DNA of 64,000 nt from the NCBI GenBank assembly GCA_000091205.1, contig AP006500.2; one strand, given 5' to 3'. The stretch comes from Cyanidioschyzon merolae. Its lineage: Eukaryota. Position numbers and translations under genes: made by a program. Under the pieces are notes generated by a model. That model had not been told where the DNA came from. It did not search any database and was given only the letters and a program-made list of their open reading frames with translations. Below are positions 7,644 through 48,965 of this stretch, piece by piece. Every line of letters starts with the position of its first letter. Position 1 is the first letter of the stretch.

Positions 7644-8117
7644 TCTGACGTCGGCAGAATCCGGAACGTCTCCAGAACGCGCCACTGGTACCCGTGGCGA
7701 CAACAGCGGCAGAGCAGGTGCGCTCTTGTGCAGACTGTTCAGTACCGCGGTCGCGATGCTACCGCTGGCGCTAGCCACAGGGTACCCATGTTCATTGAAT
7801 GGAATGAGGGCTTGCGGGCAGTCCTGGCGCCAACTGCCTGCAATCCGCAATGTCGGCTTCGTGCGCACGTATGTCACTTCATGTGCACGGCACGCATGCG
7901 GCCTATCGGCAGACGCGCGTTCTCTGTAGCGGCTCGCTGCCTCCGAAATCTAAAGCCCATGTTTTAGTTTACCTCAAATGATACATAGCTGTCGAGAATG
8001 CTGCGTACCGGAAACATCCAAGTACCTGGAGCGAAAGTCACGGAGCACGTCTTGCATCCCAGTGGCAACCTGGAAGCGTCAACTCCCAGGGGAAAAACCA
8101 CCACACGGGGCACACAC

Positions 8118-8353
8118 CATCACCGCCTTTCGAAAGTCGAACGGCAGCAGTGTACAGTAGTGGCGGCAACCGCGCCCTAGACGAAACGTCTCCAACCGAC
8201 GTGCAGACGCCTCCCGGTTTTTCTCGACCGAGCACCCACTACTGCTTCCAACTTCTTTTCATATAGTTCCACTTTGAAAGGTTATCCAATAAAGTTCTCT
8301 CTTGTCGACTCTGGAGGTCTCTTCTCCAGCACCGCACATTTCCTTATATTGAT
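8118..8353 (-). ncRNA. Candidate omegaRNA scaffold / right-end module of the Fanzor element. It overlaps the last ~23 codons of the nuclease ORF and ~165 bp downstream.
   Basis: A ~235-bp block conserved at roughly 85-90% by eye with 22601..22837; its core is conserved again at 28636..28674. It contains short perfect hairpins (ttcga-aag-tcgaa at 8129..8141; gacg-aaa-cgtc near 8181..8191). Its position relative to the ORF matches the TnpB/Fanzor omegaRNA architecture. Homology stops sharply at 8118 in both copies, as expected for an element end followed by the guide. Confidence 0.45.
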
Positions 8354-10540
8354 AGCGGCATTAAAGTCTCGGTTCACGAATTCCATCCGTTTCTTGCTAT
8401 CACTTGTTGTACTAACCAATGCAAGTAGCCCTCGCACTTTTGCCCTCCTCTCCATTTGCTCCTCCGTCAGCGGTCCGTACTTTGCTATTTCCTCAGGATT
8501 CCGCTGGCACTTTTCCATCCCGACCCTTCGAAGTGTACACCCCAGCTCGTGGTGTGTATAGGACGTTCGGAACTCATCCACAGGTATCGTAAAGAGACGC
8601 CTTGCGCACTCTTTGTACGCTCTCGTCGTTGGAGCTGGCGTAGTTCCTTTTAGGGTCTTCCATCGCCCTGCACCGTACGCTACTACGAGCCTCTGATTTT
8701 CATTCTCCTTGAGCGCGCTCAACTGATTGAAAAAGTTGGCGAACGCCCGCTGCCTCCCACCGTATAGATGCATACACAGACGAGCCCACCGGGGCTTGGT
8801 ATACTCCTCCCACAGCGCATCCCAATGGGCAACACGAACTCCCATGGATTTCCGGAAAGCTTCAAAGTCGGCTCCTCGGCTCGTCACCTCGCTCAACGCT
8901 TCCAGGTGATCCTTCATTCCTGAATTCCAAGTCTCGATTTCCTTCCTCGCATTCATGATTGCCGATTCTCGATAGTATCTCGCTCTCGAGAATCTCAACA
9001 GACGCATATCTTTCTGACGTAAGTTGCCGTCAGTACCATCTTCCGCACGCTTCGGTGCTGCGACGGCTATAATATTCGTATTTCCAGGGTCCGCGCCAAC
9101 GATAAAGTCGTTATCCTGCACTTTCTGCTTCTCAGAGCCCGCCTTGTTGTTTTCTTCATGCTTCGTCGCGTCTACGACAAGGTCGTTATCCTGCACTTTC
9201 TGTGTGGCAGGATCCGCATCCTTCTCATCTCCATGCTTCGTCACGTCAACGATAAAGTCGTTATCCTCCACCTCCTGCGTCGCAGGACCCGCCCCTTTGT
9301 TTTCTTCATGCTTCGCCGCGTCAACGATAAGGTCGTTGTCCTGCACCTCCTGCATCACAGGATCCGCCTCCTTGTTTTCTTCATGCTTCGTCACGAGCGC
9401 AGCCAAGGGCGGAACTGGACGATCTTTCTTCAACCGCCAATAGCGTATACACAAGGCTACTCCATCGGTTTCGATCAACCCAATGAATACCTTCTTCTTG
9501 CTCACTTTGAGACGTTTGAAATCGAAGATGCTCATCCAGTACGTCTCCCGGTTTTCGCCGGTGAAGTCCTCCCTGCTAAAATCGAACTCGGGACTGATCT
9601 CCCTCATGACGCCATGAAGGATTCTGGAGTCGATAGTCACAAAATGTGACTTGATGTTGCCCAACGGAACCACGTTGAAGCGCTTCCCCATTAGGAAAGC
9701 CTTCCGTCTCTCCCACTCTTCATTTGTCTCTTCACTCAGCATCACCTCTGCCTTGCGTTCGATGTCACGATCCAGAAACACGAAATACCGCAGGACGAGG
9801 CGATAGTATCTTTCCTTCTCTTTTTTCAACGCTAATATCTTGTCTGTTGGATTCACCAGCCCCAGTCCCGCACGATCCTCTTGTATAACCGCACGGATCG
9901 TAGAGGCTTCATTGGTGCTCACCTTTGACGTCGTCTTGTCGACAAATTCGACCTCATCTTCACGCTTGCGATCTTTCATGATGCCATTGATAATCGCCCA
10001 TTTCCCATTGCGAGAGATGCCCGAGTAGAGTGCAATCACAGCGCGTCTCATGAAACGTTCGAGGTTCACTGTCAAATGGTTCTTCAGATTCGTGATGTAC
10101 TTCATGGGCCTATATGTGTAAATATCCCGGTCACCCTTGTATCGAGTACCATTGAGGCTGTAAAAGGGATGTTTTTCGTGGAAGACATCCACCCGCTCAT
10201 TTTCCTCCCGCGCTTCCTCTGTACCAAGCGTCAGCTGACGAATAAAAATCTTGTCGAAAAACACGTGTGGAATCTCGACCGTTTCGATGGGCGTCACGTC
10301 GCGATACATCTCCCTCTCCAAATGCATCAGTCCTGACGACGCCTTGAAAATACTCTTGGAGTACGAGTCCACACGTTTTTTGATAGCGTCTCGCAACTTT
10401 TCCTTGTAGGGATCCTTGATATGTCCAAGAAGAAAGGTTTTCACAACCATCTCGTCGTACAGTTGTCTTTCTTGCCGCCTTCGACGTAGGGTATCCCCCT
10501 TTCGGTTCTTCTTCTCTTCCTTTTCTTCTGGACTAGACAC
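8282..10540 (-). CDS. Fanzor (eukaryotic TnpB-like, RuvC-fold RNA-guided endonuclease; OMEGA effector), Fanzor1-like. It has a long N-terminal extension and an internal acidic tandem-repeat insertion.
   Basis: 752-aa ORF. RuvC-I: '[18 protein letters not shown]'. RuvC-II: '[18 protein letters not shown]'. RuvC-III: '[18 protein letters not shown]', which matches the DxNAAxNI signature of TnpB/Fanzor. Spacing is I-to-II ~170 aa and II-to-III ~70 aa. The region between II and III has only 2 Cys (non-canonical zinc finger). It is embedded among eukaryotic housekeeping genes. Confidence 0.75.
9098..9396. repeat. Coding tandem repeat of 4 x ~75 bp inside the Fanzor ORF.
   Basis: Units begin 'acgataaagtcgttatcctgcac...'. 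They encode ~25-aa acidic repeats '[26 protein letters not shown] / [24 protein letters not shown] / [26 protein letters not shown] / [19 protein letters not shown]'. The last unit runs into the RuvC-I motif. Confidence 0.8.
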
Positions 10541-10760
10541 TGTTTTTTGTTTTTTCTGGCAGCCAGCGACACTGGGCCTCCAGGATCGTCGATTTGCTTT
10601 TTCATAACTTTCCTTTTTTTAGTTTTTTTGGAAAAGAACGCTCCCTCAACGCCTCTGATATAAACAGCGAAAGAAAACTTGAAAAAACTAAACTGAGGGT
10701 TGAAATATAACTGAACTGAAAAGTATACTCTGCTGTGACTTTAACGCAAATACAACGTGC
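10541..10760 (-). promoter_or_regulatory. AT-rich 5' flank, the putative promoter/5'UTR of the Fanzor ORF.
   Basis: The local AT content is much higher than the surrounding GC-rich sequence (poly-T/A runs and TATA-like 'ttatattt' on the sense strand). It lies immediately upstream of the ATG at 10540. Confidence 0.3.
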
Positions 10761-10940
10761 ACTTGAGAGCAACACGCTCAAGATCGCGATCCCGTTTCCC
10801 TTCAACAACGACATGCGCGTCGTATTTCATGCCTCCCAGATATGGAGGTGCGCGTATCGACCGCGATGCCCCCTGGCACTCGGACGTGAACTCCAAATAC
10901 CCTCAATAGAAGCATTAGCAGCAGGCTGCCGGGCACGCAT

Positions 10941-11708
10941 ATGGGCCAAAGGGCCCGCCATGCGCACCTGGTTCAGTCGGATTTTCATGCAGACCCCAAC
11001 GCACCGCAAGAACTCTTGGACGAAATCGACGCAGATTTGGCTGAAGCGCCTCTTAGGCGAAAACATTCTCCCCAATCGTTCCCCAGAAATATAGAAGGCT
11101 CCCGCCGCCTGAAGCGAACGGTCCAAACAACAGTACGGGAATGTAGACATGCAGTCAGTCGCGCGAGTAACGCCGGCTTGACTCTATACCGGAACTACAG
11201 CCTAGCCTGTTCATGCACGTACTGGTGGGAGGCGCTGGAGTTCACGGGACTTGCTCGAGGTACACAGTGGCTCGCCAAAATCCGCGTTGGTGGCTTCTGG
11301 CTACCAGCACCGGCTCTAAGCCGTATAGGAACACTGGAATCGCACTGGGAATCACACTGTCCCTGCTATCGAGACGAAATCCCCGAGACCCTGACATATG
11401 TAGGCGTACAGTGCCCGCGCTGGAAGCAGGAGCGCAGCGAGCTCCTTGAAGGACAGCAGCAGCTGGGCATCACCGTGATAGTCGAAGGCCGGACACTCAC
11501 TCTGAGTGTAGCACTGGCAACTGATGGTCCGCTAACCGAGCATCAGCGCTCATCAATGGCGAACAAACGCATATGCTACCTTCTAGGTGGAAGATCCAGC
11601 GGATCGGATGCGCACACGGGCTCAGTGCGCTCTCTGCGCCTACCTTCTGTGGTAGGTTTCAAGCACAAACCCGCATTGCCAACCGACAACAACGCATTCC
11701 ATGCATGA
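10941..11708 (+). CDS. Hypothetical ORF with a zf-RVT-like motif (CPxC...ET...CP...W), as found at the C-terminus of non-LTR retrotransposon ORF2 proteins. It is a possible decayed LINE fragment.
   Basis: Motif 'HWESHCPCYRDEIPETLTYVGVQCPRWKQERSEL'. No RT catalytic motifs were seen. It lies between the Fanzor start and repeat B on the opposite strand. Confidence 0.25.
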   Translation: MGQRARHAHLVQSDFHADPNAPQELLDEIDADLAEAPLRRKHSPQSFPRNIEGSRRLKRTVQTTVRECRHAVSRASNAGLTLYRNYSLACSCTYWWEALEFTGLARGTQWLAKIRVGGFWLPAPALSRIGTLESHWESHCPCYRDEIPETLTYVGVQCPRWKQERSELLEGQQQLGITVIVEGRTLTLSVALATDGPLTEHQRSSMANKRICYLLGGRSSGSDAHTGSVRSLRLPSVVGFKHKPALPTDNNAFHA

Positions 11709-11945
11709 TCACGAAGGAGAGAGGCGGCTCCCAGGATATATCCTAACAGCCAAGTTTCTCCAGCGTGTCGTGCAGCGAAGGCAAGCCTGCATCCGCAGAC
11801 TGTCCAAGCACAAACTGACGACGAGGCCCGATTCTACTTCAGGTGAAGTACGCCTCGAGCCGATGCCCTCTGGGGTATAGAAAAGCAGTTCTAGCTCTAT
11901 GAACTATCTGATCCAGCGGTACAGGTCCAAAGGTGGATACGGAAA

Positions 11946-12139
11946 GGCAGGTACTAGGCACACTCGATAGGACGTATGAAACGACCAGAACATCCGAGAT
12001 GAAGTATATGTACTGTAACTTGGAGGTAGGGTGTTTGATAGATACCTCACCGCGCTCTGAAAAAATATAAAGTAAGAAAAGAAAAATGCGCATAATCGGA
12101 GAACGCTGGCCCAAGTAAACGTCTTGTCAATGAAAAAAA
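11946..12139 (-). repeat. Repeat family B, copy 1. It is the reverse complement of the copy at 22838..23027 and a possible element left-end region.
   Basis: Roughly 85% identical by eye over ~190 bp to the reverse complement of 22838..23027. Homology extends through 'gtcaatgaaaaaaa' (12126..12139). The plus-strand TATA-like 'tataaag' (about 12066..12072) has no counterpart in copy 2. Confidence 0.6.
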
Positions 12140-14824: not shown

Positions 14825-16504
14825 AACATCGTCGGCGTGAGAGAAGCAAAAGGTTGAGCGGCTCAAAAGCATCGAATCTGGTGGACACTTGCGCATTCAC
14901 TTCCCACAGTATGCGTTTGCATGCCGCAGGCGCCGCTGCAACAGTCAGAACTCGCATTTTTGCAGCCGCGTAATCGCTTCCATTTGGCGAATCCAACTTG
15001 ATTGTACCGGAAACCGGCACAGACCTGATTAGACCAGTGAACCTTGAAGATATCGTTCGTCGGAAGCCAGCATTTGCATCGCGATTCGTGTGGGAATGTG
15101 TTTGCTCATTCGCTGGCTCGATCATTCCAGTTAGAACAACGGCAACGACAACAACAGAAGTAGCCCCTGGCTTCTCATGGTATTGGTGATGGCAACGCAG
15201 ACACCGGATGCCGAGCTGCTTTCGCGCACAGTGTTCGTCGAAACGTGTTCCCTCGGCAACGGGACGACAAACGTCGTATCCCCAGGATGGTTGGAGCGTG
15301 ATGTCAGACTTACACGTTTCGTGCACAACTATGGTTTCCACAAAACAGCCCCCAGAACGAAGCAGAAGCCCTCGTCGATTCCGACTGCTCGCGCCTCTCC
15401 AATCGTCTGGTCGATGTGAACCCCACGTGTCACATCAAGATCCATGATATCGCAGGAGGCTCGTCTGCACTGTACGAGACGGCCTCCTCTGTGAGCTACC
15501 GCTGATCTCTGGGAACGAGTAGAACGCGTTCGAACAACATCGCGATAACGAGTAGCGGAGCTCGTTCCAAGCTGCTCGTATATAACGAAGAAATGCAAAG
15601 CAGTTTACGCGGACGAGAGAGTCCCGCGGAGTATCGGTCTGGATGCACTGTGTGTAAACGAGGACACATATCCAAGAGTCGTGCAGCGATGCTCATTTCC
15701 AACCGTTCAACGTAGGTCATGAGAGAGGCTTCGTGAGGCGCGTGAATCTCGCTTTGCAAGGCGTCATCGCTGTCGAAGCACTTCCACATCAGGAAGATGG
15801 AGCCAAATACCTAAACGGAAACCAGATGAAGCTGTTCGACTCTCACAGGCTCTGCTTCATCGAGAGTCGAACGTGATGATCGCCAGGATCGTTACGAAAA
15901 TGGAATAAAAGCGTTAGTGCCCGTCTTATCGTTCCAAGCGTCCTGTCGAGCAGCAAGGAAACGCGCTGCGCGCAACATTCAAAGCAAACATGAGCGTCCT
16001 AATGACTCAGACCGACGATTCCTGGGAAGCGTACATGAGGCTGCGCTGCTGTCGCCAACATATTCGGTCTCACGGAGGCAAGAGGCATGCATTCGCTAAC
16101 ATGCTCAATGATGCGGTTCACGACTTGTTCGGCAACCTATAACAGGGCGAAGTTCTCGCGACCGATGGGATGGCAAGCTGTGCGTCGCGCCAGTGGGGCA
16201 TGGCGTCCAAGCAACTGGGACCCATAGAATGTGCTTCGAATCTTGCACAGTATCAATGGAAAAACAGAAGCGCTTCATGAATCAGTCAGCAAAGGAGTAC
16301 CGCATTCGGATCTCCTCGCATCAGAATCGACTCCTTTCACCCCGCACACCAGTGAAACCCTGCGGTGCAGTGCTCGGGACTTAGCCGAGCCAGAAACCCC
16401 AACTCTTTGCTGTAAGACCTCACTGGCAATGTGCATATGCTGCATCTTGCGGGTCTCTGCATGATGCCGTCCCCGATACATGGAACAGATTGGTTAGCTT
16501 CTCT

Positions 16505-22600: not shown

Positions 22601-23027
22601 CATCACCACCGCCGTTCGAAAGTCGAACGACAGCAGTGTGCAGTCGTGGCGACCGGCGCCCTAGACGAAACGTCTCCAACTGACGTGCAGACGCCTCCCC
22701 GTCTTTTTGGACCGGCCACCTTCTACTGCTTCCAACTTCTTCTCATATAGTTCGACTTTGAGAGGTTGTCCAACAAAGTTCTCTCTTGTCAGCTCTGGAG
22801 GTCTTCTCTCCAGCACCGCACATCTCCTGATACTGATTTTTTTCCATTGACAAAATGTTTACTTAGGCCAGCGTCCTCCGATTCTGCGCATTTTTCTTTT
22901 CTTACTTTTTTTTCAGTGCGCGGTAAGGTATCCATCAAACGCCCTACCTCCAAGTCATATTCCCTATACTTCGTCTCGGATATTCTGGACGTTTCATACG
23001 TCCTACCGTGTGTGCCTAGTGCCTGCC
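22601..23027. mobile_element. Solo composite remnant: module copy 2 (22601..22837, omegaRNA-scaffold/right-end homolog in the same orientation as locus 1) joined directly to repeat B copy 2 (22838..23027). It lacks a Fanzor ORF.
   Basis: The module homology ends at the position equivalent to 8353, inside the Fanzor ORF 3' end. The B homology begins at the very next base. B is inverted relative to its orientation at locus 1. Short overlapping ORFs here are just read-through of the repeat. Confidence 0.55.
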
Positions 23028-24275
23028 GAGAGCGATAGCAATGGCGCCTGTAGCCCCGGTGCGGTCGCTGCACGGAGACAGAACGGCGTTGCCGTACCAC
23101 ACAGAGGGCGTCTGCCCGAGGAAATTGCGGTGAGGACGAGATTCCAACTCGCGCGCTCAAAGAGCATATCCTTGGCAGGCACACCCGTTAACCATGGCGG
23201 TACTTCTGGTGCAGAGGTATCTCCGGCACCTCACCGGTAATCCCCTAGGAAATCCGATAGTTTGGCGATTCTCCTTCCTAAATTTTCGGTAATTTGTATT
23301 GTGTGCCAAGTGCACGAGCCTATCTCAAACCAAATGGATTCGGCTCTGGCTCGAATCCATGACGGTCGAGGGTTCCATCAGTTAGCAGTTCGGATGTTCT
23401 TCTTATTTGTTAGCATTCGTGATGCTAAAGTGGAAAGGCGTCGTGTTCTACGATGATGTGGAAAATGCTTTGCTTGTTCCGATGCCTATTTGCGCGGATC
23501 GTATCCAGCGGAATTTGGCAGGGATGCATAGAGTCTATATCGAGTGAACAAGTCTGCCGCTCGCCCGGTGAACGCCCGCCATCGAGTGATTGCCTTTGTG
23601 CGGAAACCATGGGCCGGCATTTTTCAGCCCATGGGATACGGGCACTCCGCAGAGTTTCAAGTCAGCTGCTGGCTACGCGCGCACGCAGTTCACCCTGGAC
23701 ACAGTCGAGACGACGACGCCCCATGCGGTGACGGACGGGGCGCTCGACAAGGTTTAAAAACGGTGCAGACCGCATGAGGTTTCATACGGACAAACTTTGG
23801 AGAATACAGCACGAAAAAGTCCCCAGAGCAGTGTCGTTCAAACAAGCCGAGCCTTTCCTGGGTGTACTCGTTCAGAAACGGTGCGTCCCAGCGCGTGCTC
23901 ACTCCCTACCCGCTTCCTCGCACGATCAGCCAGCTGTTGCTCCAGAGGCGGCACTGCGCAGATTTTTCCATCATTTTCAGAACTTTGATTGCCACTGTTT
24001 CACAAATGCGCAGAAACCAGCACTCGTAAAGCGCCACTTCGTTGCCATCGCTTCTGCACTTGAGCCCCTACTGCGCTGCAGAGTGGATGCCGGACGGCGC
24101 GGTGAGACGCGGAGCGCGCGTAAAGTACATAGTTCGATGATCAACTACGTTCTTTCATCAAGGCCAACAGTCAACTTCGCTGGTTTCCGGTCTAACTGTT
24201 TCTGAGTGCTGTTCAGAGCGATCATCCCTTGGGTAGCAGGAACTCGAGCAGTTCCCGAAATACAAGCCCTGGACG

Positions 24276-27989: not shown

Positions 27990-28700
27990 ATTAAAGACTT
28001 TCCCATGATTTCCGGCGATGTCCTTCAACTGGACAGCTTCCCAATTCACCATTCCACTTGCGCTCGAGCTTCTCCCGATTTTGTTGGAGTAGAGCCACTT
28101 CTCATTCCGCCGTACACTCCGTGGGTGAACCGCATCTAAGAGAGAGTTTTCTATTGTGGAGCGCAATGGTCGCTGCACTCGGAGAATCCCTGTGCCATTC
28201 AGCAGTCAGCGACACCGAGACACTTGCCGTCTTTTTCCTGCAAGTCCTTCTTGCTCCGGGAAGGTTCTTACGTGGGGGCATAAGCATGTGCATTGATTTT
28301 CAAAATTAAAGACCCTAAGGCATGCGCCGAGTGTACAGTTCAGAACATCGTTATGGAGAGCAGGCAGCGGAGTGCTGAGGACATAGAAAAGCACGGAGAG
28401 CTGCCGGAGCACCAAACGGCACAGAGGGCGCGAGTTCTTGGACTCCTCGCACTGACCAGTTCAACCAATCGCAAGAAACACATTGAGTTCATGAACTGAG
28501 ACTTTACCGCCGCCATCAATATCAGGAGATGTGCGGCACTGAAGAAGAGACCCGCGGAGCTGATGCGAGCCAGCCTTGTCGGACAACCTCTCAGTGTCGA
28601 GGTGTATAGGAAAAAGCTGAGGCTGATAACAGACAGCCGGTCGAAAAAAAGCTGGGAGGCGTCTGCAAGTCGGTGTATGTATGTGCTCTATGATCGCGAA
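27990..28700 (+). pseudogene. Degraded Fanzor/TnpB-like paralog. It has frameshifts and an in-frame TGA before the RuvC-III motif, has lost its stop, and is followed by a partial copy of the omegaRNA-like module (core 28636..28674).
   Basis: '...TAQRARVLGLLALTSSTNRKKHIEFMN*DFTAAINIRRCAALKKRP...' aligns with the locus 1 C-terminus '[46 protein letters not shown]'. Upstream fragments 'SHFSFRRTL', 'IVERNGRCTRRIPVP', 'DTCRLFPAS' match 'AFANFFNQL', '[19 protein letters not shown]', '[11 protein letters not shown]' in shifted frames. Downstream, 'ccggtcgaaaaaaagctgggaggcgtctgcaagtcgg' matches the reverse complement of 8196..8232. Confidence 0.5.
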
Positions 28701-28741: not shown

Positions 28742-31312
28742 ATGCGTGCAATGCGTAAAGCAACCGCTTCGCCGCAATCCTTCCATGCCCCACTTTCAAA
28801 ACAGATTCTTGTTGTTCTTATTCGAGGAAGCACTTTGGATCAAACATGCATGGGTGAAAGAGAGTCATATGCTTCGTCTGTACGACGTTGCTTTCACGGG
28901 GAGCCTGCAACTCGGCGACAAGTCTTGAAGCCTGGTTCGAATACGGGTCGCTTCTTTTGGGCCTGTGCTCGCACACTCCGCTCCGGACAGCGTTGCGCGT
29001 ACTTCGTCTGGGACAGCCACTCGGGTGTGTACGAAACAGTTCAGGCTGCGGATGGTGCACGTACGAGCCTTGGAGACCAGGTCCAAGCGGACCCGACAAG
29101 TAAGAAACTGGAGAGCACACGAGGGCGTGTGCCAGGAGCGGCGTCATCACGCACCTGCGGAAGCGGGCCGTTCTGGGAGGCCCTGCGAAACACCAAGCGC
29201 AGTGGAACGTCCCAAGATCAGTTGCCGCAGTTTTCATTGAGCAGTGATCCGCAAGCAGGCAGCGCAGCAATACGCGCTGGCAGTGGGCTGGAGAAGAGGC
29301 CGAGCAAGGAACGCGCCGGCACGCAGTGGCTAGTCGAGATCGGGGACGGAGAACATTTTCACCTCTGGCCTCAGAAGAATAGCGAGGCAAACGCATATAT
29401 GCTTTTTCAGCTTGCGCAGCGAGTTCCGGGTGCAGTGCTGGAACCCTCGAAGGAACGCCTTCGGATACCATTGTCTTCCTGGACTGCAACCTCTGCAGCT
29501 GTCGCAGCGCTTGAGGGAAGCATCCGTGGCCATCCACCGCAGCGGTTGATGCAAAACCTGGTGAATCTTCGCCGTCGGTTGGAGGACCGAAATGGGGAAA
29601 AACAATGCTTCGCGGAGGTCTTGGCCCATGCTCGCGCGTCCTTGGCGTCGATTCAGCTCTGGGAGCAGTTGCTACCTTTTCAACGGACTGGCGTTGAGCG
29701 CGCGATTGTCCAAGGCGGGCGCGTCCTTCTAGCCGATGAAATGGGCCTCGGAAAAACCATCCAAGCAATTGCCATCGCGTGGGTTTTGCGAAAGGACTGG
29801 CCGGTGCTCATTGTTTGTCCAAGTTCACTGCGAGGCGCCTGGTGTCGCGAGTGGAGAGACCGGTTAGCGGGCGCCTCGCTGACACCCTCCGATATTCATG
29901 TTCTGGAGACGGCCACCGACGCGGGAAAACCTCTTCGTGCGGTCAACATCGTGTCGTACGATTTGGTGGGCCGACTTGCCGACGCGCAGCTCCAGCGCGT
30001 CGGTGTCCTGATCCTCGACGAGAGCCATTATATCAAATCAGTGGATGCCAAACGGACACAATTCCTCTTGCCTTGGCTGAAACGGATACCGCGTGTGCTG
30101 CTGCTCACCGGCACCCCGGCGCTATCGCGACCGGCAGAGCTGTTCACGCAGCTACATGGTCTGGCGCCGTCCATATTTAGTGACTGGAAAGAGTTCGCGT
30201 ATCGGTATTGCGGTGCCCGAAGTACTCCGTGGAAAGCCTTGGACACGTCTGGCGCTACCAACCTGTCCGAACTTCATCGCATCTTGACGCAAACCGTTAT
30301 GATTCGCCGTCTCAAGGCGGAGATCCTGGATCAGCTGCCTCGGAAGGAACGCGGGGTCGCGTACGTGGAGCCTGCAGCGTCCACTCCAGAGCAGTTGCAT
30401 GCCGTGCTAGACGAACTCGCGGCGACTGAGCAGAAAGCTAGCACCGGCGATCAACAAGCAGCGAGCAAGGTGAAGGCGCTCATGAGCAAGGCATTCCACC
30501 TGACCGCTGTAGCCAAAGTGCCAGCCGTGCTGGCCCAGTGTGCAGACATTTGGCGAACTGGACACAAATTTTTGCTTTTTGCCTATCACGAACTCATGCT
30601 CGACGCTGTGGAAGGATGGCTACGCGAACAACAAGGTACCTGGATACGGATCGATGGCAAGACACAAGTTACAGAGCGCCAGGCGCTAGTGGATCGGTTC
30701 CAAGATGATCCTCAATGCCGTGTAGCGCTCTTGGCGTTGACAGCAGCCGGAGCTGGTCTCACGCTCACTGCAGCCCACGTGGTACTCTTTGCCGAGCTCT
30801 ACTGGAATCCAGGCACGCTGCGGCAAGCAGAGGATCGCGTTCACCGTATCGGCCAAAAGGAGTCGGTCTCTATCCGTTACCTGATCCTGCCTCGAAGCCT
30901 TGATGATCGCATGTGGCGATCCGTCCAGAACAAGCTCGATATCTTGCATTCATCCCTGGACGGTAAAATCGATCGCGAACGAGTCAATGTGGTGGCTGGA
31001 TCAGCCTGGAATGCCCCAGAGCCAGGCCCATTGGATCGTTTCTTCAAGCGTCGTAGCCAAGGAGTGGTGTCGTCCCCGGAACCAGGTGCAGATGAGCCCA
31101 CAAGCGTACGGAGCTCTTCCGTACCAGATGCATTCGAACAAGATCACGTCCCAGTGATCGAGTCGTTCGAACCAGAGGAACCACCGGAAATTCCGTCGTC
31201 TTTCTTGAATAGTGAGCTGGGCTCGGGATCAAACCGAACGCAATTTCAGCGAGAGGCACGGAAAAGGACCTTTCAGGAAATTGAGCCGAATAACGCTCTA
31301 CCTAGTTCTTAA
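28742..31312 (+). CDS. SMARCAL1-like SNF2-family annealing helicase with a HARP-like domain and an N-terminal GRF-type zinc finger.
   Basis: GRF-like zinc finger: 'CFHGEPATRRQVLKPGSNTGRFFWACARTLRSGQRCAYFVWD'. HARP-like: 'QWLVEIGDGEHFHLWPQKNSEANAYMLFQLAQRVPGAVLEPSKERLRIPLSSW'. SNF2 motifs: 'LLADEMGLGKTIQAIAIA', 'LILDESHYIKS', 'LLLTGTPALSRP'. Helicase-C: 'LLALTAAGAGLTLTAAHVVLFAELYWNPGTLRQAEDRVHRIGQ'. Confidence 0.8.
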   Translation: MRAMRKATASPQSFHAPLSKQILVVLIRGSTLDQTCMGERESYASSVRRCFHGEPATRRQVLKPGSNTGRFFWACARTLRSGQRCAYFVWDSHSGVYETVQAADGARTSLGDQVQADPTSKKLESTRGRVPGAASSRTCGSGPFWEALRNTKRSGTSQDQLPQFSLSSDPQAGSAAIRAGSGLEKRPSKERAGTQWLVEIGDGEHFHLWPQKNSEANAYMLFQLAQRVPGAVLEPSKERLRIPLSSWTATSAAVAALEGSIRGHPPQRLMQNLVNLRRRLEDRNGEKQCFAEVLAHARASLASIQLWEQLLPFQRTGVERAIVQGGRVLLADEMGLGKTIQAIAIAWVLRKDWPVLIVCPSSLRGAWCREWRDRLAGASLTPSDIHVLETATDAGKPLRAVNIVSYDLVGRLADAQLQRVGVLILDESHYIKSVDAKRTQFLLPWLKRIPRVLLLTGTPALSRPAELFTQLHGLAPSIFSDWKEFAYRYCGARSTPWKALDTSGATNLSELHRILTQTVMIRRLKAEILDQLPRKERGVAYVEPAASTPEQLHAVLDELAATEQKASTGDQQAASKVKALMSKAFHLTAVAKVPAVLAQCADIWRTGHKFLLFAYHELMLDAVEGWLREQQGTWIRIDGKTQVTERQALVDRFQDDPQCRVALLALTAAGAGLTLTAAHVVLFAELYWNPGTLRQAEDRVHRIGQKESVSIRYLILPRSLDDRMWRSVQNKLDILHSSLDGKIDRERVNVVAGSAWNAPEPGPLDRFFKRRSQGVVSSPEPGADEPTSVRSSSVPDAFEQDHVPVIESFEPEEPPEIPSSFLNSELGSGSNRTQFQREARKRTFQEIEPNNALPSS

Positions 31313-43703: not shown

Positions 43704-46700
43704 GTGGACGCGTGCGGTCGGAACGTTGGTCAAATTTGGTTTTGGGGTTGTTTGGCTCCGGGAACGCTGGTGTTCATGGAGGACGAACATCCTGCGCCTA
43801 ACTCGGATCGCACCTATGCCAGCGACTTGGAGCAGGGGAACGTTTTCGGGAGCAGCCCCTCCGAGCGACACAGTTTCAGCCGCCTTGATGGCAACCGAGC
43901 GGGTTCCATTGGGGATGAGATGGATAGTGATGTAGCTGTTGATGAAGAGGACCGGAATGCGGGTATGGAGGTACTCGGGTTGTTCTCAGTCAGGGCGCGC
44001 TCTCGGGCTCGAGTGCGCAGCGATAACCGCGACGGCAGTGACAGTGGTAGTGCTCTTGACGAGGGCGTCGACGACAACAGCGACGATCATGGCGATGATA
44101 TTGCTGGATTCGGTGAGAGCGACGATCTATCGGGAGACGTGGACAGCAGTGATTGCGGTTTTGAAGACGACCAAAACACCGATGTCGACGCCGCTGGAGA
44201 GAGCGACCTGGAAGAGTTTCCGGACCCAGCTGAAGGAGAGCTGGACTCGTTTCGCCACGACGTGGATGCCACCGATGATGACTTGGGAGAAGAAAACGCC
44301 TCTGATGCGGACGCTTCAACCTTTGGCGATGGCATGGATCACGACGACGACGACGAAGACGAAGACAACGACGACGATGATGATGACGAGGGCGAGGACG
44401 ACGACGACGACAACGATAACGTTGACGAAGAGGAAGACGACGGCGACGACATGCCAAGTGATGATGAGGATGCTGAGTATTCTCAATTTTTCGGCGTTGA
44501 ACAGGAGATGCTTTCCCTCATGGAGCAGCGCGGATCTGCCTGGATGGAGGGTATGCCGGCAGCGCACCTCCAAGCATTGCGCAGAGCCGACATCCAGGCT
44601 CAACGTCTTATGCAGCGCTTTCGGAATGCCGATGATGACATGGAAGTGTTCGTGGTCTGGCGTAATGGACAGGAAGCTGGCGAAATACTCGCAGATCGCG
44701 ATGAGGATGCTTCTCTACCTGGTCTAGGTATACATTTTCTTAACATGACCAACGAACAGCCAGACTGGGCTGAAGGTTTCGGTCTGGGAATCGCCGCAGC
44801 GAATGCGATGTTGCTTAGCGACCCGAGCAGCGAAGCGTTGCGGCCATACGCGCCTGCGCGGCTAGAGCTACCGCAACCGCCGCGCGTTGAGAGCGATTCG
44901 CGATCACCGTCCGAACGTAACTTGTCGGTCGCAGGCAACGTGCTGGACGGCTTGGGCAGTCGCCGACACAGCCCGGGCGCGACTCTGGGCAACATCTTGT
45001 TGTACGGTTCGGGTGCACACTGCCAAAGTTGCCCGAGATCAGCGCGCGAGGCGCTCTCAGCGCTTTGCCGTTCTGACGGCTTGCGCGCCCTGCTGGCGTC
45101 GAGCTCGGCGGTTGCACCGACCGCACTCATGATGCGACGCAATATCAGTTGTGGGGACTGCGGTCTCCGCAATGCGGCGGACGCTCGAATCCATGATTTC
45201 GCGGATCTCGTACTGCGAAGTCCAGCGTTCACAGAGAACCTTGGCCACGGCATCGCAGCTGCATATTTGGTCAGCAAAATGAATCCGCCTCCAAAGGAAT
45301 CCGAGCAGCTGTGGGATCTTGCATCCCTTGGAACCGTGCTCGCTGGAGCGCATTTTCATCCACTCTTTTGGGACGGCGCTCGCGGCAAGAGTTCCGAGTC
45401 GCCACTGCCGGGCTTGTATCGCGCACCACCTGCGCTGTCGATTCGGTTCTCTGAGGATTTGTTGGAAGCGCTGCTGGGGCTGCCTATTGGTCCACTGCTG
45501 GGCATCGATCGTTTCGGAACGCTGGCGGTCACCGGGACGCGCCAAAGGCGGCGAGATGTGCTGCGTCTGTATCGCGCGTTTGGCAGCTGCTCGCTGCGGC
45601 GTGGCGCACCGTACGATGCGCTCAGTGGCCTCGATACCCATGCACGTCATCTGGATACCCAGCAGAAGCGCTTCGCAGCGCTCCACGAGGAAATGCGAAC
45701 ACTCTGGCGCGATGAGCGCGTCCGTAGGGAGCGAGCCCAACTTGACGACGAGTACCGCCGTCTCGTTGACGAAGAGCAAGCGCAGGCCTCGGAATCCTGT
45801 GCGAATGGCAGGCAGGGCGAGCCCGACGTGCCCATGGAACGCTCAGAGCAGCAGGAGCAGGAGCAGGTGCTGCCAGCACCTGGCACGGAGATGGAGGCCG
45901 CTAGCTCATTGACTGGTTCGCTTCTGGAGCATGCGTCTGCTGCGAGTCCGTCACACCCAGCCAGCAGCGGTATGCTTACGGGAGCTGCGGAGACATCAGA
46001 CTCGGCCGTTGTGCTGTCTATGCAAATCGACGATTTGCCGGGCGCTACTCAAGTGCTGGGTCCCGACGCACCTGAACCTGCAGCGAGCGGTGCAGTCGAG
46101 CTCAGTTCGGACGCCGAAGTGCGAGCGCCGCCTGTATCGGACTCTACGACCGATCAAGAGGCAGGGACGCGTTCCATCACCGAGTCCGATATGGAGCACG
46201 TGGCGCGCACTGTCGGCATTGACCCCACGGTGCTCGTCGAGTTACCTCCAGATCTCCGACGAGAAGTCATTCAGCAAAACCTCGCCCAGATTCGGAGCAA
46301 CCCAGCATTTCTGAGCTACCTGCCGGTGAATGTGCGACAGGAAGTTGAGGAGGCAGCTGCCCAGCTTGATCGCCTTCGTGGCTCCGCAGCCGAGATGGAT
46401 AACGCTTCCTTTTTGGCAACGTTGCCCACTGCGCTGCGCGAAGAGATCTATCTAACCTCAGACGAATCGTTTTTGCAGTCATTGCCGCCGCACTTGGCGG
46501 CCGAAGCTCGCGCAGTCCGCGATCGTCGGCGATCATTATCATCAGCATCAGCAGCAGCAGCAGCTGCTGCTGCTTCGGCGTCGTTTCTTGGACCCAATGA
46601 TCTCACTTCTGGTGCGAGCGAAATTTCAGCGCTCATGTCAACGCCGCAAGTCAGCGCGCGAAAAAGCTGTGGCCTTGTCCTGGTCACGCAGTTGGATGTG

Positions 46701-48965
46701 CTGGAGAAGGCGCTGCGCTCGCCCGGAGTCTGCTGCCCGCTGCTCGCGAATACCGTGCGTCTGCTTTGTTACGAGCCAACGACACGGATGCGCATCATTC
46801 GACTAGCCTGGCGGCTCGTGGAATGCCAGCGCCCAGACGATGCGAGCACCGCTGGAAGAAGTGCAGAGCTCGTGGGCAGCTTGCTGCGCTTTAGTCCAAC
46901 GATAGCGCTAGATCTGGTCGCCGCCGATGGCGATCAGCCGTTGATGCACCTGCTCCAGAGCATTCCCAAGGCTGTTCGATTCGGCGGACGCCATTGCCAC
47001 CGTCTGCTGGAGGTGCTGCTTGCGACGACCAGCCTCTTCGTACAACTGTTACGAGGCCAGGTTCCACAGCGTGGTCTGCAATTGGAACCCGCCCAGCCGG
47101 ATGCCTCGATGACGTTGCCAGTCGTTCCGCCGGTGGTCGCTCCGGGGGTGCTCAACGACCTGGCGATTGCCTTGCAGGTTCCGGATCTATCTGCTCGCTC
47201 CTGGGACCGTTTGCTCTCCATCTACGAGTACCTCTATGGCGAAGAGCAGAATCGTGATACTGTCATCCAGTGTCTCGTTCAGATTGCGGGAGCGCTAATC
47301 GAACCGGTGTGTGCTGCCATTCGCGAAGAGCCCGGCTTACGGCCGTGTGAGAGCTTCTTCGTCCAGACAGTGAAGAGTGTTGCGCAGCTGGTGCGTCCGC
47401 ATCTCGAGTGCCTGCAGGTGCTGGAGCCGGTATGGACGTGCCTCGAGGAGCAGTTGGCCGCGGGCGCAGGTGCGGGTCCACCGGTGCGCCTCTCGCGTCT
47501 CATTGAGTGCTACCTTCAGGCGCACAGTATCCGCTTGCCGGACCTGTTAGCGGATCTCAACCAACCGCCAGTGCTGGAGAGCAACCCCTCGCTGCTGGCG
47601 CGTTCGGAGTCTGCGTCAACGTTGCGCTCGTCGACAACGACAACAACAACAACAACGACAAATGGCGTTACGCTGCCCGAGTCGGTCATGGCGATCGACC
47701 GTGAACTCGCAAGCTTCCTGGAGCGGCACACGCTGCAGATCAATCAATTACTGCAATTGAATCCGGCCCTGTTTCGTCAGGGATTTCAATCGACGCTCTT
47801 GCATGCCCGCTTTCTGGAATTCGAAAACAAGAAAGTGTTCTTCCGGCACGTTATCCAGGAACAGCGACGCGCGAGTCGACAATCGCCCGTGCGTCTGCTC
47901 GTGCGCCGCGACTGCGTTTTCGAGGACAGCTATCATCAGTTACGGCCGCGCAGCGCTGCGGAGCTTCGTGGAACCCTCACCGTCCAGTTCGTTGGCGAGG
48001 AAGGCATCGACGCCGGTGGACTTTTGCGCGAATGGTACGTGATCCTGGCTCGCAAGATCTTCGACGAGAATTACGCGCTCTTTCGCCGTTGCGTCGGCAA
48101 AAGCGCTGCATACCATATCAACGAATGTTCGTATATTAACGAGGATCATCTGGGCTTTTTCAAGTTCATCGGACGCTTCATCGGCAAAGCGCTCTGGGAC
48201 GGTCAACTCCTGGATGCCTATTTCGCTCGCTCCGTTTACAAGCACATGATCGGCATAAGGCCTTCGTACCACGATATTGAAGCGATCGACCCGGAATACT
48301 ACGCCAGTCTGGTGTGGATGCTCGAGCATAACATCGCTCACGTGCTGGACTTGACCATGGCGGCGGAGCTGGACCAGTTCGGAGAGCTCAAAGTCGTGGA
48401 TCTGGTACCCGGCGGCCGCCATATTCCCGTAACCGAGGAGAACAAATGGGAATACGTACGACTCATTACCGAACTCAAAATGACCAAAGCCGTGGAGCCC
48501 CAGTTGCAGGCGTTTCTCGAAGGGTTTCACGAAATGGTACCGCGCTCACTCATTGCCATGTTCAGCGATTACGAACTGGAGTTGCTTATCTCCGGTCTGC
48601 CCGAGATCGATACCGCTGATCTCAAGATGCATACCACGTACAGCGGCTACCGACCGTCGAGCCCACAGATCCAGTGGTTCTGGCAAGCGGTTGCCGAGAT
48701 GGATCGTGACGATCGCGCACGTCTCGTGATGTTCGTCACCGGCAGCAGCAAGGTACCGCTGGGCGGCTTTGCGAACCTCCCCGGTATGAATGGCGGTGTT
48801 CAGCGCTTCCAGATCCATCGCGTTGCTGGTGATACCGATCGTCTGCCGAGTGCACATACCTGCTTTAATCAACTTGATCTCCCTGAGTATAGCAGTTATG
48901 AAAAGCTTCGCGAACGCTTATTGACAGCAGTTCGTGAAGGCAACGAGGGTTTCGGGTTTGGTTGA
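43704..48965 (+). CDS. HECT-domain E3 ubiquitin ligase, HUWE1/UPL1-like (UBM-type repeats plus C-terminal HECT). It contains long acidic and low-complexity tracts.
   Basis: HECT: 'LTVQFVGEEGIDAGGLLREWY...', 'YHDIEAIDPEYYASLVWMLEHNI', 'PLGGFANLPGMNGGVQRFQIHRV...LPSAHTCFNQLDLPEYSSYEKLRERLLTAV' (catalytic Cys in 'HTCFNQL'). UBM-like repeats: 'LVELPPDLRREVIQQNL', 'YLPVNVRQEVEEAAAQL', 'FLATLPTALREEIYLTS'. Poly-D/E coded by (GAC/GAT)n at about 44337..44452; poly-T coded by (ACA)n at 47634..47660. Confidence 0.85.
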   Translation: MDACGRNVGQIWFWGCLAPGTLVFMEDEHPAPNSDRTYASDLEQGNVFGSSPSERHSFSRLDGNRAGSIGDEMDSDVAVDEEDRNAGMEVLGLFSVRARSRARVRSDNRDGSDSGSALDEGVDDNSDDHGDDIAGFGESDDLSGDVDSSDCGFEDDQNTDVDAAGESDLEEFPDPAEGELDSFRHDVDATDDDLGEENASDADASTFGDGMDHDDDDEDEDNDDDDDDEGEDDDDDNDNVDEEEDDGDDMPSDDEDAEYSQFFGVEQEMLSLMEQRGSAWMEGMPAAHLQALRRADIQAQRLMQRFRNADDDMEVFVVWRNGQEAGEILADRDEDASLPGLGIHFLNMTNEQPDWAEGFGLGIAAANAMLLSDPSSEALRPYAPARLELPQPPRVESDSRSPSERNLSVAGNVLDGLGSRRHSPGATLGNILLYGSGAHCQSCPRSAREALSALCRSDGLRALLASSSAVAPTALMMRRNISCGDCGLRNAADARIHDFADLVLRSPAFTENLGHGIAAAYLVSKMNPPPKESEQLWDLASLGTVLAGAHFHPLFWDGARGKSSESPLPGLYRAPPALSIRFSEDLLEALLGLPIGPLLGIDRFGTLAVTGTRQRRRDVLRLYRAFGSCSLRRGAPYDALSGLDTHARHLDTQQKRFAALHEEMRTLWRDERVRRERAQLDDEYRRLVDEEQAQASESCANGRQGEPDVPMERSEQQEQEQVLPAPGTEMEAASSLTGSLLEHASAASPSHPASSGMLTGAAETSDSAVVLSMQIDDLPGATQVLGPDAPEPAASGAVELSSDAEVRAPPVSDSTTDQEAGTRSITESDMEHVARTVGIDPTVLVELPPDLRREVIQQNLAQIRSNPAFLSYLPVNVRQEVEEAAAQLDRLRGSAAEMDNASFLATLPTALREEIYLTSDESFLQSLPPHLAAEARAVRDRRRSLSSASAAAAAAAASASFLGPNDLTSGASEISALMSTPQVSARKSCGLVLVTQLDVLEKALRSPGVCCPLLANTVRLLCYEPTTRMRIIRLAWRLVECQRPDDASTAGRSAELVGSLLRFSPTIALDLVAADGDQPLMHLLQSIPKAVRFGGRHCHRLLEVLLATTSLFVQLLRGQVPQRGLQLEPAQPDASMTLPVVPPVVAPGVLNDLAIALQVPDLSARSWDRLLSIYEYLYGEEQNRDTVIQCLVQIAGALIEPVCAAIREEPGLRPCESFFVQTVKSVAQLVRPHLECLQVLEPVWTCLEEQLAAGAGAGPPVRLSRLIECYLQAHSIRLPDLLADLNQPPVLESNPSLLARSESASTLRSSTTTTTTTTTNGVTLPESVMAIDRELASFLERHTLQINQLLQLNPALFRQGFQSTLLHARFLEFENKKVFFRHVIQEQRRASRQSPVRLLVRRDCVFEDSYHQLRPRSAAELRGTLTVQFVGEEGIDAGGLLREWYVILARKIFDENYALFRRCVGKSAAYHINECSYINEDHLGFFKFIGRFIGKALWDGQLLDAYFARSVYKHMIGIRPSYHDIEAIDPEYYASLVWMLEHNIAHVLDLTMAAELDQFGELKVVDLVPGGRHIPVTEENKWEYVRLITELKMTKAVEPQLQAFLEGFHEMVPRSLIAMFSDYELELLISGLPEIDTADLKMHTTYSGYRPSSPQIQWFWQAVAEMDRDDRARLVMFVTGSSKVPLGGFANLPGMNGGVQRFQIHRVAGDTDRLPSAHTCFNQLDLPEYSSYEKLRERLLTAVREGNEGFGFG

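Follow-up and report, generated by a model that had tools for sequence, protein, structure and literature searches.

Does a chromosome of Cyanidioschyzon merolae carry the gene of a working Fanzor nuclease? The question was raised by an open reading frame in a 64,000-nucleotide stretch of contig AP006500.2 (the window), which an earlier note had read, from the sequence alone, as an intact and potentially active Fanzor/TnpB-like gene. Fanzors are eukaryotic RNA-guided nucleases that are being developed as compact genome editors, and C. merolae serves as a model alga that is thermo-acidophilic and amenable to genetics. A native C. merolae Fanzor would suit the in vivo study of what Fanzors do for transposons and might be a source of a heat-tolerant enzyme. 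The reading that we favor, at a probability of about 0.75, is that the locus is one copy of CMe-1A, a non-autonomous transposable element family that carries Fanzor1, and that this copy is a recently inactivated relic.

The frame is present as described, at 8282-10540 on the minus strand, where 752 codons followed by TAA form the Fanzor1 coding core and carry the three motif strings. RuvC-I (GADPGNTNI) was located at 9071-9097 (residues 482-490), with the codon of the catalytic D484 at 9089-9091; RuvC-II (VDEFRTS) at 8561-8581 (residues 654-660), with the E656 codon at 8573-8575; and RuvC-III, a block of ten residues, at 8345-8374 (residues 723-732), with the D725 codon at 8366-8368, all on the minus strand. 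Each of D484, E656, and D725 is invariant in 70/70 relatives in the family alignment, and the profile alignment places them on D383, E541, and D606 of SpuFz1. In the AlphaFold (AF2) model, D484 ends the strand 479-485, E656 lies in the loop following the strand 650-654, after beta5, and D725 starts the helix 724-737. By alignment and predicted structure, the three motifs are the RuvC-I, RuvC-II, and RuvC-III catalytic positions in canonical secondary-structure placement, and the triad occurs in the TnpB/Fanzor order that the note had recognized.

The note had suggested a profile search and would have taken the lack of significant similarity to TnpB/Fanzor profiles as evidence against its reading. 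The outcome depended on the kind of search. Single-sequence searches of Pfam, NCBIfam, and the PDB (phmmer) with the window protein returned no significant match; the best Pfam match was PF07282 (TNB), with E=0.25 over 11 residues. Taken at face value, these searches would wrongly speak against the Fanzor identity, so profiles are needed. The 70-member family profile, submitted against the whole PDB, matched only PpFz1 (1.6e-24), SpuFz1 (7e-19), and GtFz1 (1.6e-13). A word-indexed profile search counted at least 153 relatives, and an exhaustive HMM search at E<=1e-3 resulted in 3,882 cluster representatives (50% identity clusters); given these numbers, the open frame and its motifs are far beyond chance. 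In Pfam, the family is tagged DUF8286, not TnpB.

The structural comparison, likewise suggested by the note, agreed with its reading. The AF2 model reached a pLDDT of 83 and a pTM of 0.81, and its top seven Foldseek matches were all Fanzor1 structures, aligned over the full length with E 1e-14 to 1e-16 and TM 0.71, whereas Cas12/Fanzor2 and TnpB/Cas12f-type structures appeared only at E>=0.01 with partial alignments. The predicted fold consists of a WED domain, an extended REC, and a RuvC domain with a TNB insert. The flanking genes are eukaryotic, as had been noted: Mito_carr, PTPA, SNF2+GRF, WD40, CYP38-like, GRAM/VASt, and HECT (43704-48965, plus strand), four of which exactly match C. merolae 10D proteins in BAM82340-BAM82345, which identifies the window as strain 10D. 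On the evidence of sequence profiles and the predicted structure, the gene encodes a Fanzor1-type, TnpB-related RuvC nuclease in a eukaryotic chromosome; the view that it is a eukaryotic effector, not a bacterial IS element, was upheld.

The full-length fold match to SpuFz1 (PDB 8GKH, 9CEU-9CEZ) had a Foldseek E of 2.5e-16 and a TM of 0.71 normalised to SpuFz1, although the sequence identity is only 14-15%. Both proteins share the domain order WED-REC-RuvC-TNB and the D/E/D triad, and both genes are the only ORF of a multicopy element; however, SpuFz1 has a CCCC zinc finger in NUC/TNB and inverted repeats on its element, and the window copy has neither. For SpuFz1, the TAM and the ωRNA, which joins a 75-nt scaffold to a 15-nt guide, were defined experimentally, whereas those of the window copy are predicted. 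PpFz1 (9CF0-9CF3), the best profile match, shares the IDEFRTS and DPGR motifs and differs in having a zinc finger and a large insertion in RuvC (FRI domain). GtFz1 (9CER-9CET) shares GCDPGKRDI, but its third catalytic position is N, where the canonical D is retained in the window protein. ISDra2 TnpB, IS200/IS605, and Cas12f show the same split RuvC chemistry with an RDxNAAxNI-type RuvC-III block, and the window element resembles IS200/IS605 in having hairpins near both ends and neither terminal inverted repeats (TIRs) nor target-site duplications (TSDs). TnpB, however, is prokaryotic, measures about 400 aa, and has both a zinc finger and a TnpA (Y1 HUH) partner, whereas the proteins here have 630-750 aa and no zinc finger, no TnpA-like gene is seen in the unit, and the structural similarity to TnpB/Cas12f is weak. 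The Fanzor2 protein ApmFz2 (9b0l) matched only at E 0.02, with TM 0.16-0.25 over 280 columns, and no serine recombinase gene, as in the Fanzor2/IS607-type context, was seen in the Fanzor unit.

The length of the frame had been attributed to a long N-terminal extension, which our results do not support. Typical relatives have a median of 630 aa, and the excess over them is an internal tandem repeat of 4 x 75 bp, detected by TRF at 9092-9392 (minus strand), whose in-frame 25-aa units span residues ~384-483 in the linker from WED to RuvC-I; the N-terminal part is an ordinary Fanzor1 WED/REC region. Relatives carry 0-4 copies of this unit, and the linker is predicted to be disordered (pLDDT <50 for residues 384-469). 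All conserved columns are kept in the window protein, the catalytic triad included. The zinc-finger segment from RuvC-II to RuvC-III contains two Cys and no CxxC, and in the clade 56 of 70 members have at most two Cys in this segment and only 6 of 70 have any CxxC. The canonical C4 zinc finger, which belongs to the motif of Bao & Jurka, is lost clade-wide, and the fold match is unaffected.

The gene lies in a repeat unit of ~2.75 kb (8122-10869, minus strand). Comparison by blastn with independent copies placed the 5' end at 10865-10869 and the 3' end at 8113-8124, and junction alignments concurred; sequence conservation among copies collapses at ~8121. In total, 71 related loci with common boundaries were found. 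The window copy is 91% nucleotide-identical to the consensus of 31 copies, and for the 32 copies compared the identities differ from this figure by no more than a few percent. Terminal inverted repeats were searched at the unit ends and none were found, the search for target-site duplications, including around 5'-truncated copies, yielded nothing convincing, and the 5' flanks showed no evident shared motif. The unit starts at its 5' side with a small hairpin (10851-10865, minus strand), judged by eye without statistics, that reads CGCG-GTCGATA-CGCG here and GCGCTC-GGT-GAGCGC in most copies, and the 3' end carries a terminal hairpin with a G/T-rich tail of 12 nt that may belong to the element or to the target. 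The 5' regions are modular: subsets of copies carry a module of ~610-635 bp, presumably TE-N2_CMe, whereas the window copy is without it and abuts a truncated RT repeat instead. If the RT fragment had split a longer element, the class A upstream motif might lie elsewhere in the window; it was sought there, with 0 matches.

The Fanzor family of C. merolae is already known, since CMe-1A was published in 2013 as a Fanzor1 family of ~150 copies, some of them still intact (Bao & Jurka 2013, Mobile DNA 4:12; PMC3627910). We infer the identity of the window unit with CMe-1A from species, copy number, size, divergence, and structure relative to the published description. The two agree in the species, in a single-ORF Fanzor1 element of ~3 kb with high copy number, in the lack of TIRs and of determinable TSDs, in having a few copies with long open frames, and in the modular 5' region. 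New here are the exact lesions, the 3' terminal hairpin and G/T-rich tail, the internal tandem repeat, the zinc finger loss, and the neutral drift at the orthologous locus. With the family in the literature since 2013 and the copy damaged and unconstrained, the added knowledge is modest. It comprises a precise description of how the copy and the element ends are built, a repaired consensus ORF that could be synthesised, a very large clade without the TNB zinc finger, and clues to element copying from the 3' hairpin, the G/T tail, the 5' modularity, and the solo 3' ends. The window frame is the only long ORF of its family in the data examined.

The claim that the gene is intact stood only in part. 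The catalytic residues and the core are without lesion; however, the start is frameshifted and the last 34 codons are lost, and the window copy holds no uninterrupted ORF from the family start codon to the native stop. An alignment of 43 copies placed the conserved family ATG at 10603-10605 (minus strand), out of frame with the ORF due to a 1-nt deletion in the A6 run at 10550-10555 (minus strand; consensus A7). The A7 version puts this ATG in frame and gives a peptide of which the first 33 residues were read. The GTG start of the ORF is an ORF-finder artefact, as GTG is not a eukaryotic start codon. The only plausible start in this copy is the first in-frame ATG at 10448-10450 (minus strand), Met31, just ahead of the invariant K34 of the first WED strand, for a product of 722 aa. 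At the other end, the alignment of 43 3' ends showed that the TAA at 8282-8284 (minus strand) is a derived premature stop where the consensus has CAA (Gln); there, P0007 and distant homologs read on without a stop. This C-to-T nonsense mutation strips the last 34 native codons, and the native TAG follows at 8177-8179 (minus strand), 34 codons past the premature stop.

The A6 run sits in a 0-frame heptamer, A AAA AAC, at 10550-10556. A conserved -1 recoding signal at this site was considered and rejected, because the run length varies among copies, from 6 to about 10. In a lesion census anchored on the window copy (the gapped-consensus version was scrambled by the tandem repeat), the core had 0 lesions here and 1-11 (median 5) in the 31 other copies. 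The window copy is the least damaged of the 32 non-redundant copies compared, and it is not intact.

The consensus built from 31 copies has no interruption of its frame, and dN/dS against it is 0.35 over all copies; in these two features the family's sequences retain the mark of past purifying selection. The value for the window copy is no different from that of obviously dead copies. The orthologous locus is present in two environmental strains, L001 and L005, with 99.5% identity across 11 kb. L001 differs from the window copy by five nonsynonymous and no synonymous changes, and L005 by eight nonsynonymous changes, including Q472*, and one synonymous change. In all, there are 11 distinct substitutions, of which 10 are nonsynonymous and 1 is synonymous; under neutrality, a ratio of ~3.6:1 would be expected. 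On these 11 substitutions only, purifying selection is not seen at the orthologous locus, which appears to be evolving without constraint.

These results bear on what the gene is now. That it is no Fanzor, and instead a bacterial TnpB that arrived by a recent transfer or as contamination, a Cas12-like protein, or a chance resemblance of motifs, is hardly tenable: the insignificant single-sequence searches, the DUF8286 tag, and the missing C4 zinc finger of the classical TnpB/Fanzor motif would fit such a protein, but the profile and structure matches are strong and exclusively to Fanzor1, TnpB and Cas12f aligned poorly, and the gene lies inside a C. merolae chromosome among bona fide eukaryotic genes. 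A non-Fanzor RuvC protein was rejected at the level of the profile and structure searches. Domestication by the host, with the gene serving a cellular function at a fixed chromosomal position, is very improbable. The position is conserved between 10D and L001/L005 and the frame is the sole long one of its family in the data examined; yet no purifying selection is seen between the orthologues, one of which carries a stop codon, and the gene itself has a frameshifted start and a shortened C-terminus. Its dN/dS relative to the consensus is that of dead copies, and the element termini are still present. Moreover, no exact match for the ORF was found in the protein collection, and the gene thus seems unannotated in 10D.

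A more serious alternative, although an unlikely one, is that the copy still makes a functional Fanzor1 nuclease, from Met31 or from the conserved ATG by a -1 slip on A AAA AAC, with a 3' ωRNA and tolerance of the lost tail. All motifs of the 722-aa product, including K34, are retained from Met31, so residual activity is possible, and conservation is lowest in just those parts of the protein that are lost, the N-terminal 30 residues and the C-terminal tail. In the same direction point the 752 codons free of stops and frameshifts, where the 31 other copies have 1-11 lesions, the intact triad and conserved columns in a confident fold, the in-frame heptamer at which a -1 shift would restore the consensus peptide, and the intact CMe-1A copies reported by Bao & Jurka (PMC3627910). 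However, only 1 of the 11 changes among the orthologues is synonymous and one strain has acquired a nonsense codon, the A-run varies from 6 to about 10 as in plain homopolymer decay, and a Met31 start drops the basic N-terminal segment, a putative nuclear localisation signal. With ~150 copies and over-dispersed lesions, one lesion-free core is unsurprising by chance. Given the damaged start and end and the unconstrained orthologues, the suggestion of a potentially active gene is not supported as stated. Among the copies examined, the one in the window is the best preserved, but it is most likely a recently inactivated relic, as its start is frameshifted, 34 C-terminal codons are lost, and the sister-strain locus is unconstrained. 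For this locus, homology, fold, catalytic conservation, repeat nature, boundaries, and past purifying selection on the family all have direct support.

By analogy with the position of the SpuFz1 ωRNA (PMC10432273), a candidate ωRNA scaffold region was placed at 8122-8300 (minus strand), overlapping the 3' coding end, with the flank below 8122 as the presumed guide; in IS200/IS605, the guide RNA likewise comes from a 3' end overlapping the ORF end, which would be expected here too. The region contains the hairpins H2 (8179-8191), H3 (8162-8176), and the terminal H4 (8124-8146), all on the minus strand. They fall in the last ~80 nt of the unit, which has a sharp boundary. In 35 copies, the hairpins are conserved, with 79% paired positions versus 33-48% in slid controls, and their covariation, by pair counting, was not above shuffles. 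The MFE z-score of the 3' end is -1.5, the Rfam gathering scan of the window gave 0 hits, and RNAalifold returned almost no structure on the 3' end due to indels that de-register the hairpin arms. An ωRNA at the 3' end is accordingly termed putative.

The ancestral protein would have combined a WED/REC lobe, a split RuvC with the D-E-D triad, and a TNB/NUC insert lacking a zinc finger. By homology with SpuFz1, GtFz1, and PpFz1, its partner would be an ωRNA that is made from the element's 3' end and whose guide would be the host sequence just past the terminal hairpin. Such a complex would cut matching DNA adjoining a short TAM, and cutting guided in this way may help the element to persist or spread. 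Here the ωRNA, the TAM, and the element's biological role are all proposed by analogy.

A wider and rather doubtful reading joins three proposals: that the zinc-finger-less Fanzor1 lineage (DUF8286, 3,882 representatives) is large and uncharacterised, that its carrier is a hairpin-ended element and no TIR transposon at all, and that the copy yields a Met31 or -1 slippage product. Copying of this element, which has neither TIRs nor TSDs, may be one-ended and begin at the 3' end, by a mechanism that is HUH/rolling-circle-like or RT-assisted. One-ended copying would account for a 3' terminus that stays constant and bears a G/T-rich tail, for 5'-truncated copies and gene-less ghost 3' ends, and for the several alternative 5' modules.

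The window contains other repeats. A 5'-truncated RT-type repeat, R, lies at 10873-12128 (plus strand), abutting the 5' end of the Fanzor unit in divergent orientation and containing an ORF at 10941-11708; a longer copy of R with RVT_1 is present in L003. Retroposition of the Fanzor unit by R was rejected, because the A-rich tail of R does not resemble the 3' end of the unit. A solo 3'-terminal Fanzor fragment at 22601-22837 (minus strand) is 87% identical to 8115-8353, and on the same strand the 3' end of R (22850-23121) precedes it. An older 3'-terminal fragment at 28331-28674 (plus strand) has 53% aa identity to residues 668-752, and an ancient internal fragment at 15834-16109 (plus strand) has 30% aa identity to residues 515-605 (E 4e-5).

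The minus-strand open frame at 8282-10540 (752 codons and a TAA) carries the three motif strings that the earlier note had listed: RuvC-I (GADPGNTNI, residues 482-490), RuvC-II (VDEFRTS, residues 654-660), and RuvC-III (residues 723-732). GC skew is strongly negative across 8-10 kb, and base composition is otherwise unremarkable. As a single sequence, the protein gave no match in NCBIfam or in a phmmer search of PDB, and its best Pfam match was PF07282 (Cas12f1-like TNB; E = 0.25, 11 residues); from these searches alone, likeness to TnpB/Fanzor would have been denied. The family profile, in contrast, recovered it. A nine-sequence profile already matched the solved Fanzor1 proteins SpuFz1 of Spizellomyces punctatus (8e-8) and GtFz1 of Guillardia theta, and a 70-sequence profile against PDB matched PpFz1 of Parasitella parasitica (1.6e-24), SpuFz1 (7e-19), and GtFz1 (1.6e-13), with no further match at E ≤ 10.

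The AlphaFold2 model built from the 70-sequence alignment was confident (pLDDT 83, pTM 0.81), and its sole long disordered stretch, residues 384-469, corresponds to an in-frame tandem repeat (4 x 75 bp, 9092-9392, minus strand) directly upstream of RuvC-I. The 25-aa units lie in the WED-to-RuvC linker, and their product is acidic/lysine-rich and predicted to be disordered; the window has four units, close relatives one to three, and distant ones none. The top seven Foldseek matches in PDB were Fanzor1 ribonucleoprotein structures (E 1e-14 to 2.5e-16; TM 0.71 normalised to SpuFz1, about 760 aligned columns), followed by Cas12 variants and Fanzor2 only at E ≥ 0.01. Profile and predicted structure thus make a strong case for TnpB/Fanzor likeness.

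All 70 diverse relatives compared (26-40% identity) have D484, E656, and D725 unchanged, as well as G486, R724, and N727. In SpuFz1, two Mg2+ ions are held by D383, N385, E541, and D606 (PMC10432273). In the HMM alignment, D777, E935, and D1000 of chain 8gkh_P, an MBP fusion numbered +394 relative to SpuFz1, fall exactly under the profile D (iDPGr), E (vdEFrTs), and D (nRDlNAA). The canonical pattern of Xu et al. places the first D on a beta-strand, E on the beta5-to-TNB loop, and the second D on the following helix (PMC11423790); the modelled D484 lies at the end of strand 479-485, E656 comes after strand 650-654, and D725 sits at the start of helix 724-737. Since the HMM alignment and the modelled secondary structure agree, the earlier note's placement of these residues on RuvC catalytic positions holds, and its recognition of a Fanzor1 gene from sequence alone is borne out by the profile and fold matches.

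The CCCC zinc finger between RuvC-II and RuvC-III is part of the motif definition of Bao and Jurka (PMC3627910) and is found in TnpB, SpuFz1, and PpFz1, whereas this segment of the window protein has two Cys and no CxxC. At most two Cys were counted in 56 of the 70 clade sequences, and any CxxC in only 6, so the zinc finger, as judged from the alignment, is lost clade-wide.

The sequence search found 37 relatives and the profile search at least 153, and an exhaustive library yielded 3,882 cluster representatives with E ≤ 1e-3, among which 502 reached E ≤ 1e-30. Members of full length typically have 600-650 aa. For many relatives, the precomputed Pfam assignment is PF26935 (DUF8286), which means that the family is filed elsewhere than under TnpB. 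Full-length relatives of the zinc-finger-less clade, 600-700 aa long (P0034-P0037, P0124-P0142), are almost confined to very short contigs of metagenome or SRA-assembly origin (2.7-4.5 kb). Neither the GTG-started nor the Met31-started form of the ORF had an entry in the protein collection, and the ORF therefore appears to be unannotated.

Four flanking ORFs exactly match Cyanidioschyzon merolae 10D proteins (BAM82340, 82341, 82342, 82345; chromosome of 1,253,087 bp). For C. merolae, Bao and Jurka (2013) listed one Fanzor1 family, CMe-1A, with about 150 copies that each share ~80% identity with its consensus, which is about 3 kb long, has no TIRs and no determinable TSDs, and is identical over its 5' 635 bp to another repeat, TE-N2_CMe (PMC3627910). 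Our literature search for Fanzor in C. merolae found no other paper. The window gene is most likely a member of this published family; the zinc-finger-less clade, the 3'-anchored element architecture, and the tandem-repeat insertion add some novelty, and none changes the classification.

The earlier note had called the gene intact, and this did not hold. In an alignment of 43 copies, the ATG at window position 10605 is conserved and is in frame given an A7 run; the window has A6, which puts this ATG out of frame. The GTG listed as the ORF start is an artefact; Met31 is the first ATG in frame. The frameshift site (10550-10556, minus strand), phased with the conserved ATG (0 frame), reads A AAA AAC, a classical sequence for -1 slippage, and slipping by -1 there would restore the consensus protein. 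Since the A-run varies from 6 to about 10 across copies, the site is most likely ordinary homopolymer decay. At the C-terminus, the consensus GGA CAA CCT is followed by 34 codons to a TAG at 8179-8177, whereas the window reads GGA TAA CCT and stops 34 codons early. Counted on the window frame with the tandem repeat left out, core stops and frameshifts numbered 0 in the window and 1-11 (median 5) in the other 31 non-redundant copies, and an ORF scan of all loci found the three motifs in one frame of >600 aa at the window locus only. The window copy is the least damaged rather than intact. It is probably a recent pseudogene, and residual activity from Met31 is unlikely.

A fully open frame runs through the majority consensus of 31 copies, and dN/dS against this consensus was 0.35 both for the window and, as the median, for the others, which indicates that purifying selection was acting on active lineages when most of the family divergence arose, as Bao and Jurka suspected (PMC3627910). 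The window copy itself is not specially constrained. The orthologous locus in two environmental strains (L001 and L005) is 99.5% identical over 11 kb, with ORF differences from the window of 5 nonsynonymous and 0 synonymous in L001, and 8 nonsynonymous (including Q472*) and 1 synonymous in L005. The distinct changes amount to 10 nonsynonymous versus 1 synonymous, where neutrality would give a ratio of ~3.6:1; in these small numbers from two strains, nothing points to constraint at present.

Blastn comparison with L002, L003, and 71 metagenomic loci as independent copies delimited a shared unit of about 2.75 kb, from ~10869 (5') to ~8122 (3'). The 3' junction is sharp: every copy ends alike in ...GGAGAC-N5-GTCT-AGGGCG..CGCC-ACTACTGTACAC..CGTCGTTCGA-CTT-TCGAACGGCG-TT, and unique host DNA follows. 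The 12 nt past the terminal hairpin (window 8110-8121 and equivalents, 29 loci) are G/T-rich and A-poor (T127 G122 C68 A31) and often (TGN)n-like in independent insertions, e.g., GTGATGGTGTGTG, GTGGTGGTG, and GCTGCTGCTGCT; they represent either a degenerate element tail or a target-site preference. No TIRs or TSDs were found at the unit.

Upstream of ~10869, the copies split by differing conserved sequence, with at least four classes of 5' flank in L005-L075. Class A includes GGACACGTGTCC and, internally, a copy of the Fanzor 3'-end motif; class B, ~610 bp in both orientations, is presumably TE-N2_CMe; classes C and D are the two orientations of the reverse-transcriptase-type repeat R, with C running in the direction of the Fanzor gene. 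In the window, a 5'-truncated, inverted R (10873-12128, plus strand; ORF 10941-11708) abuts the unit. R abuts the same point in the opposite orientation in L016, L022, L025, and L033, its A-rich 3' end touching the unit, and a longer copy with RVT_1 occupies L003 1-3395. These classes may reflect composite elements, an insertion hotspot, or read-through capture.

Truncation at the 5' side with an intact 3' end occurs in several copies. The window also harbors a solo 237-bp Fanzor 3' end (22601-22837, minus strand; 87% identical), which shares the 3' boundary and the hairpins and is directly preceded by an R 3'-end fragment (22850-23121, minus strand); this is the class-C arrangement, in which the R 3' end precedes the Fanzor unit, minus the Fanzor body. 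The solo end calls to mind the 'ghost' ωRNA loci without a gene in S. punctatus (Saito et al.). By analogy, the unit's end, truncations, and solo 3' end recall both these loci and the one-ended, 3'-anchored copying of Fanzor-bearing Helitron2 elements in Chlamydomonas described by Bao and Jurka (PMC3627910). An older 3'-terminal fragment (28331-28674, plus strand) has 53% aa identity to residues 668-752 and ends about 70 bp upstream of a SNF2/GRF-finger gene (28742-31312). An ancient internal fragment (15834-16109, plus strand), located between an unassigned ORF and the succinate-semialdehyde dehydrogenase gene, matches residues 515-605 at 30% aa identity (tblastn E 4e-5) and suggests repeated waves of Fanzor elements.

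The SpuFz1 ωRNA comprises a 75-nt scaffold and a 15-nt guide from the transposon end (PMC10432273). By analogy, a candidate ωRNA may lie at the element 3' end; its scaffold would occupy the final 100-200 nt and overlap the end of the ORF, and the guide would start below 8122. Conserved hairpins at 8179-8191, 8162-8176, and 8124-8146 are 79% paired versus 33-48% in slid controls, and the MFE z-score was -1.5. RNAalifold found little structure at the 3' end, Rfam gave no match, and hairpin covariation did not exceed shuffles (261/500); given that almost every copy is dead and drifting, one would not expect covariation in either case.

The flanking genes are typically eukaryotic (Mito_carr, PTPA, SNF2+GRF, WD40, CYP38-like, GRAM/VASt, and HECT). 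The HECT ubiquitin ligase (43704-48965, plus strand; 1753 aa) has HECT and UBM domains, and a larger ORF (50479-57594, minus strand; 2371 aa) matched DUF913 only, a domain of the N-terminal part of HUWE1-type ligases. These two large, convergent ORFs lie side by side and are possibly HUWE1-related.
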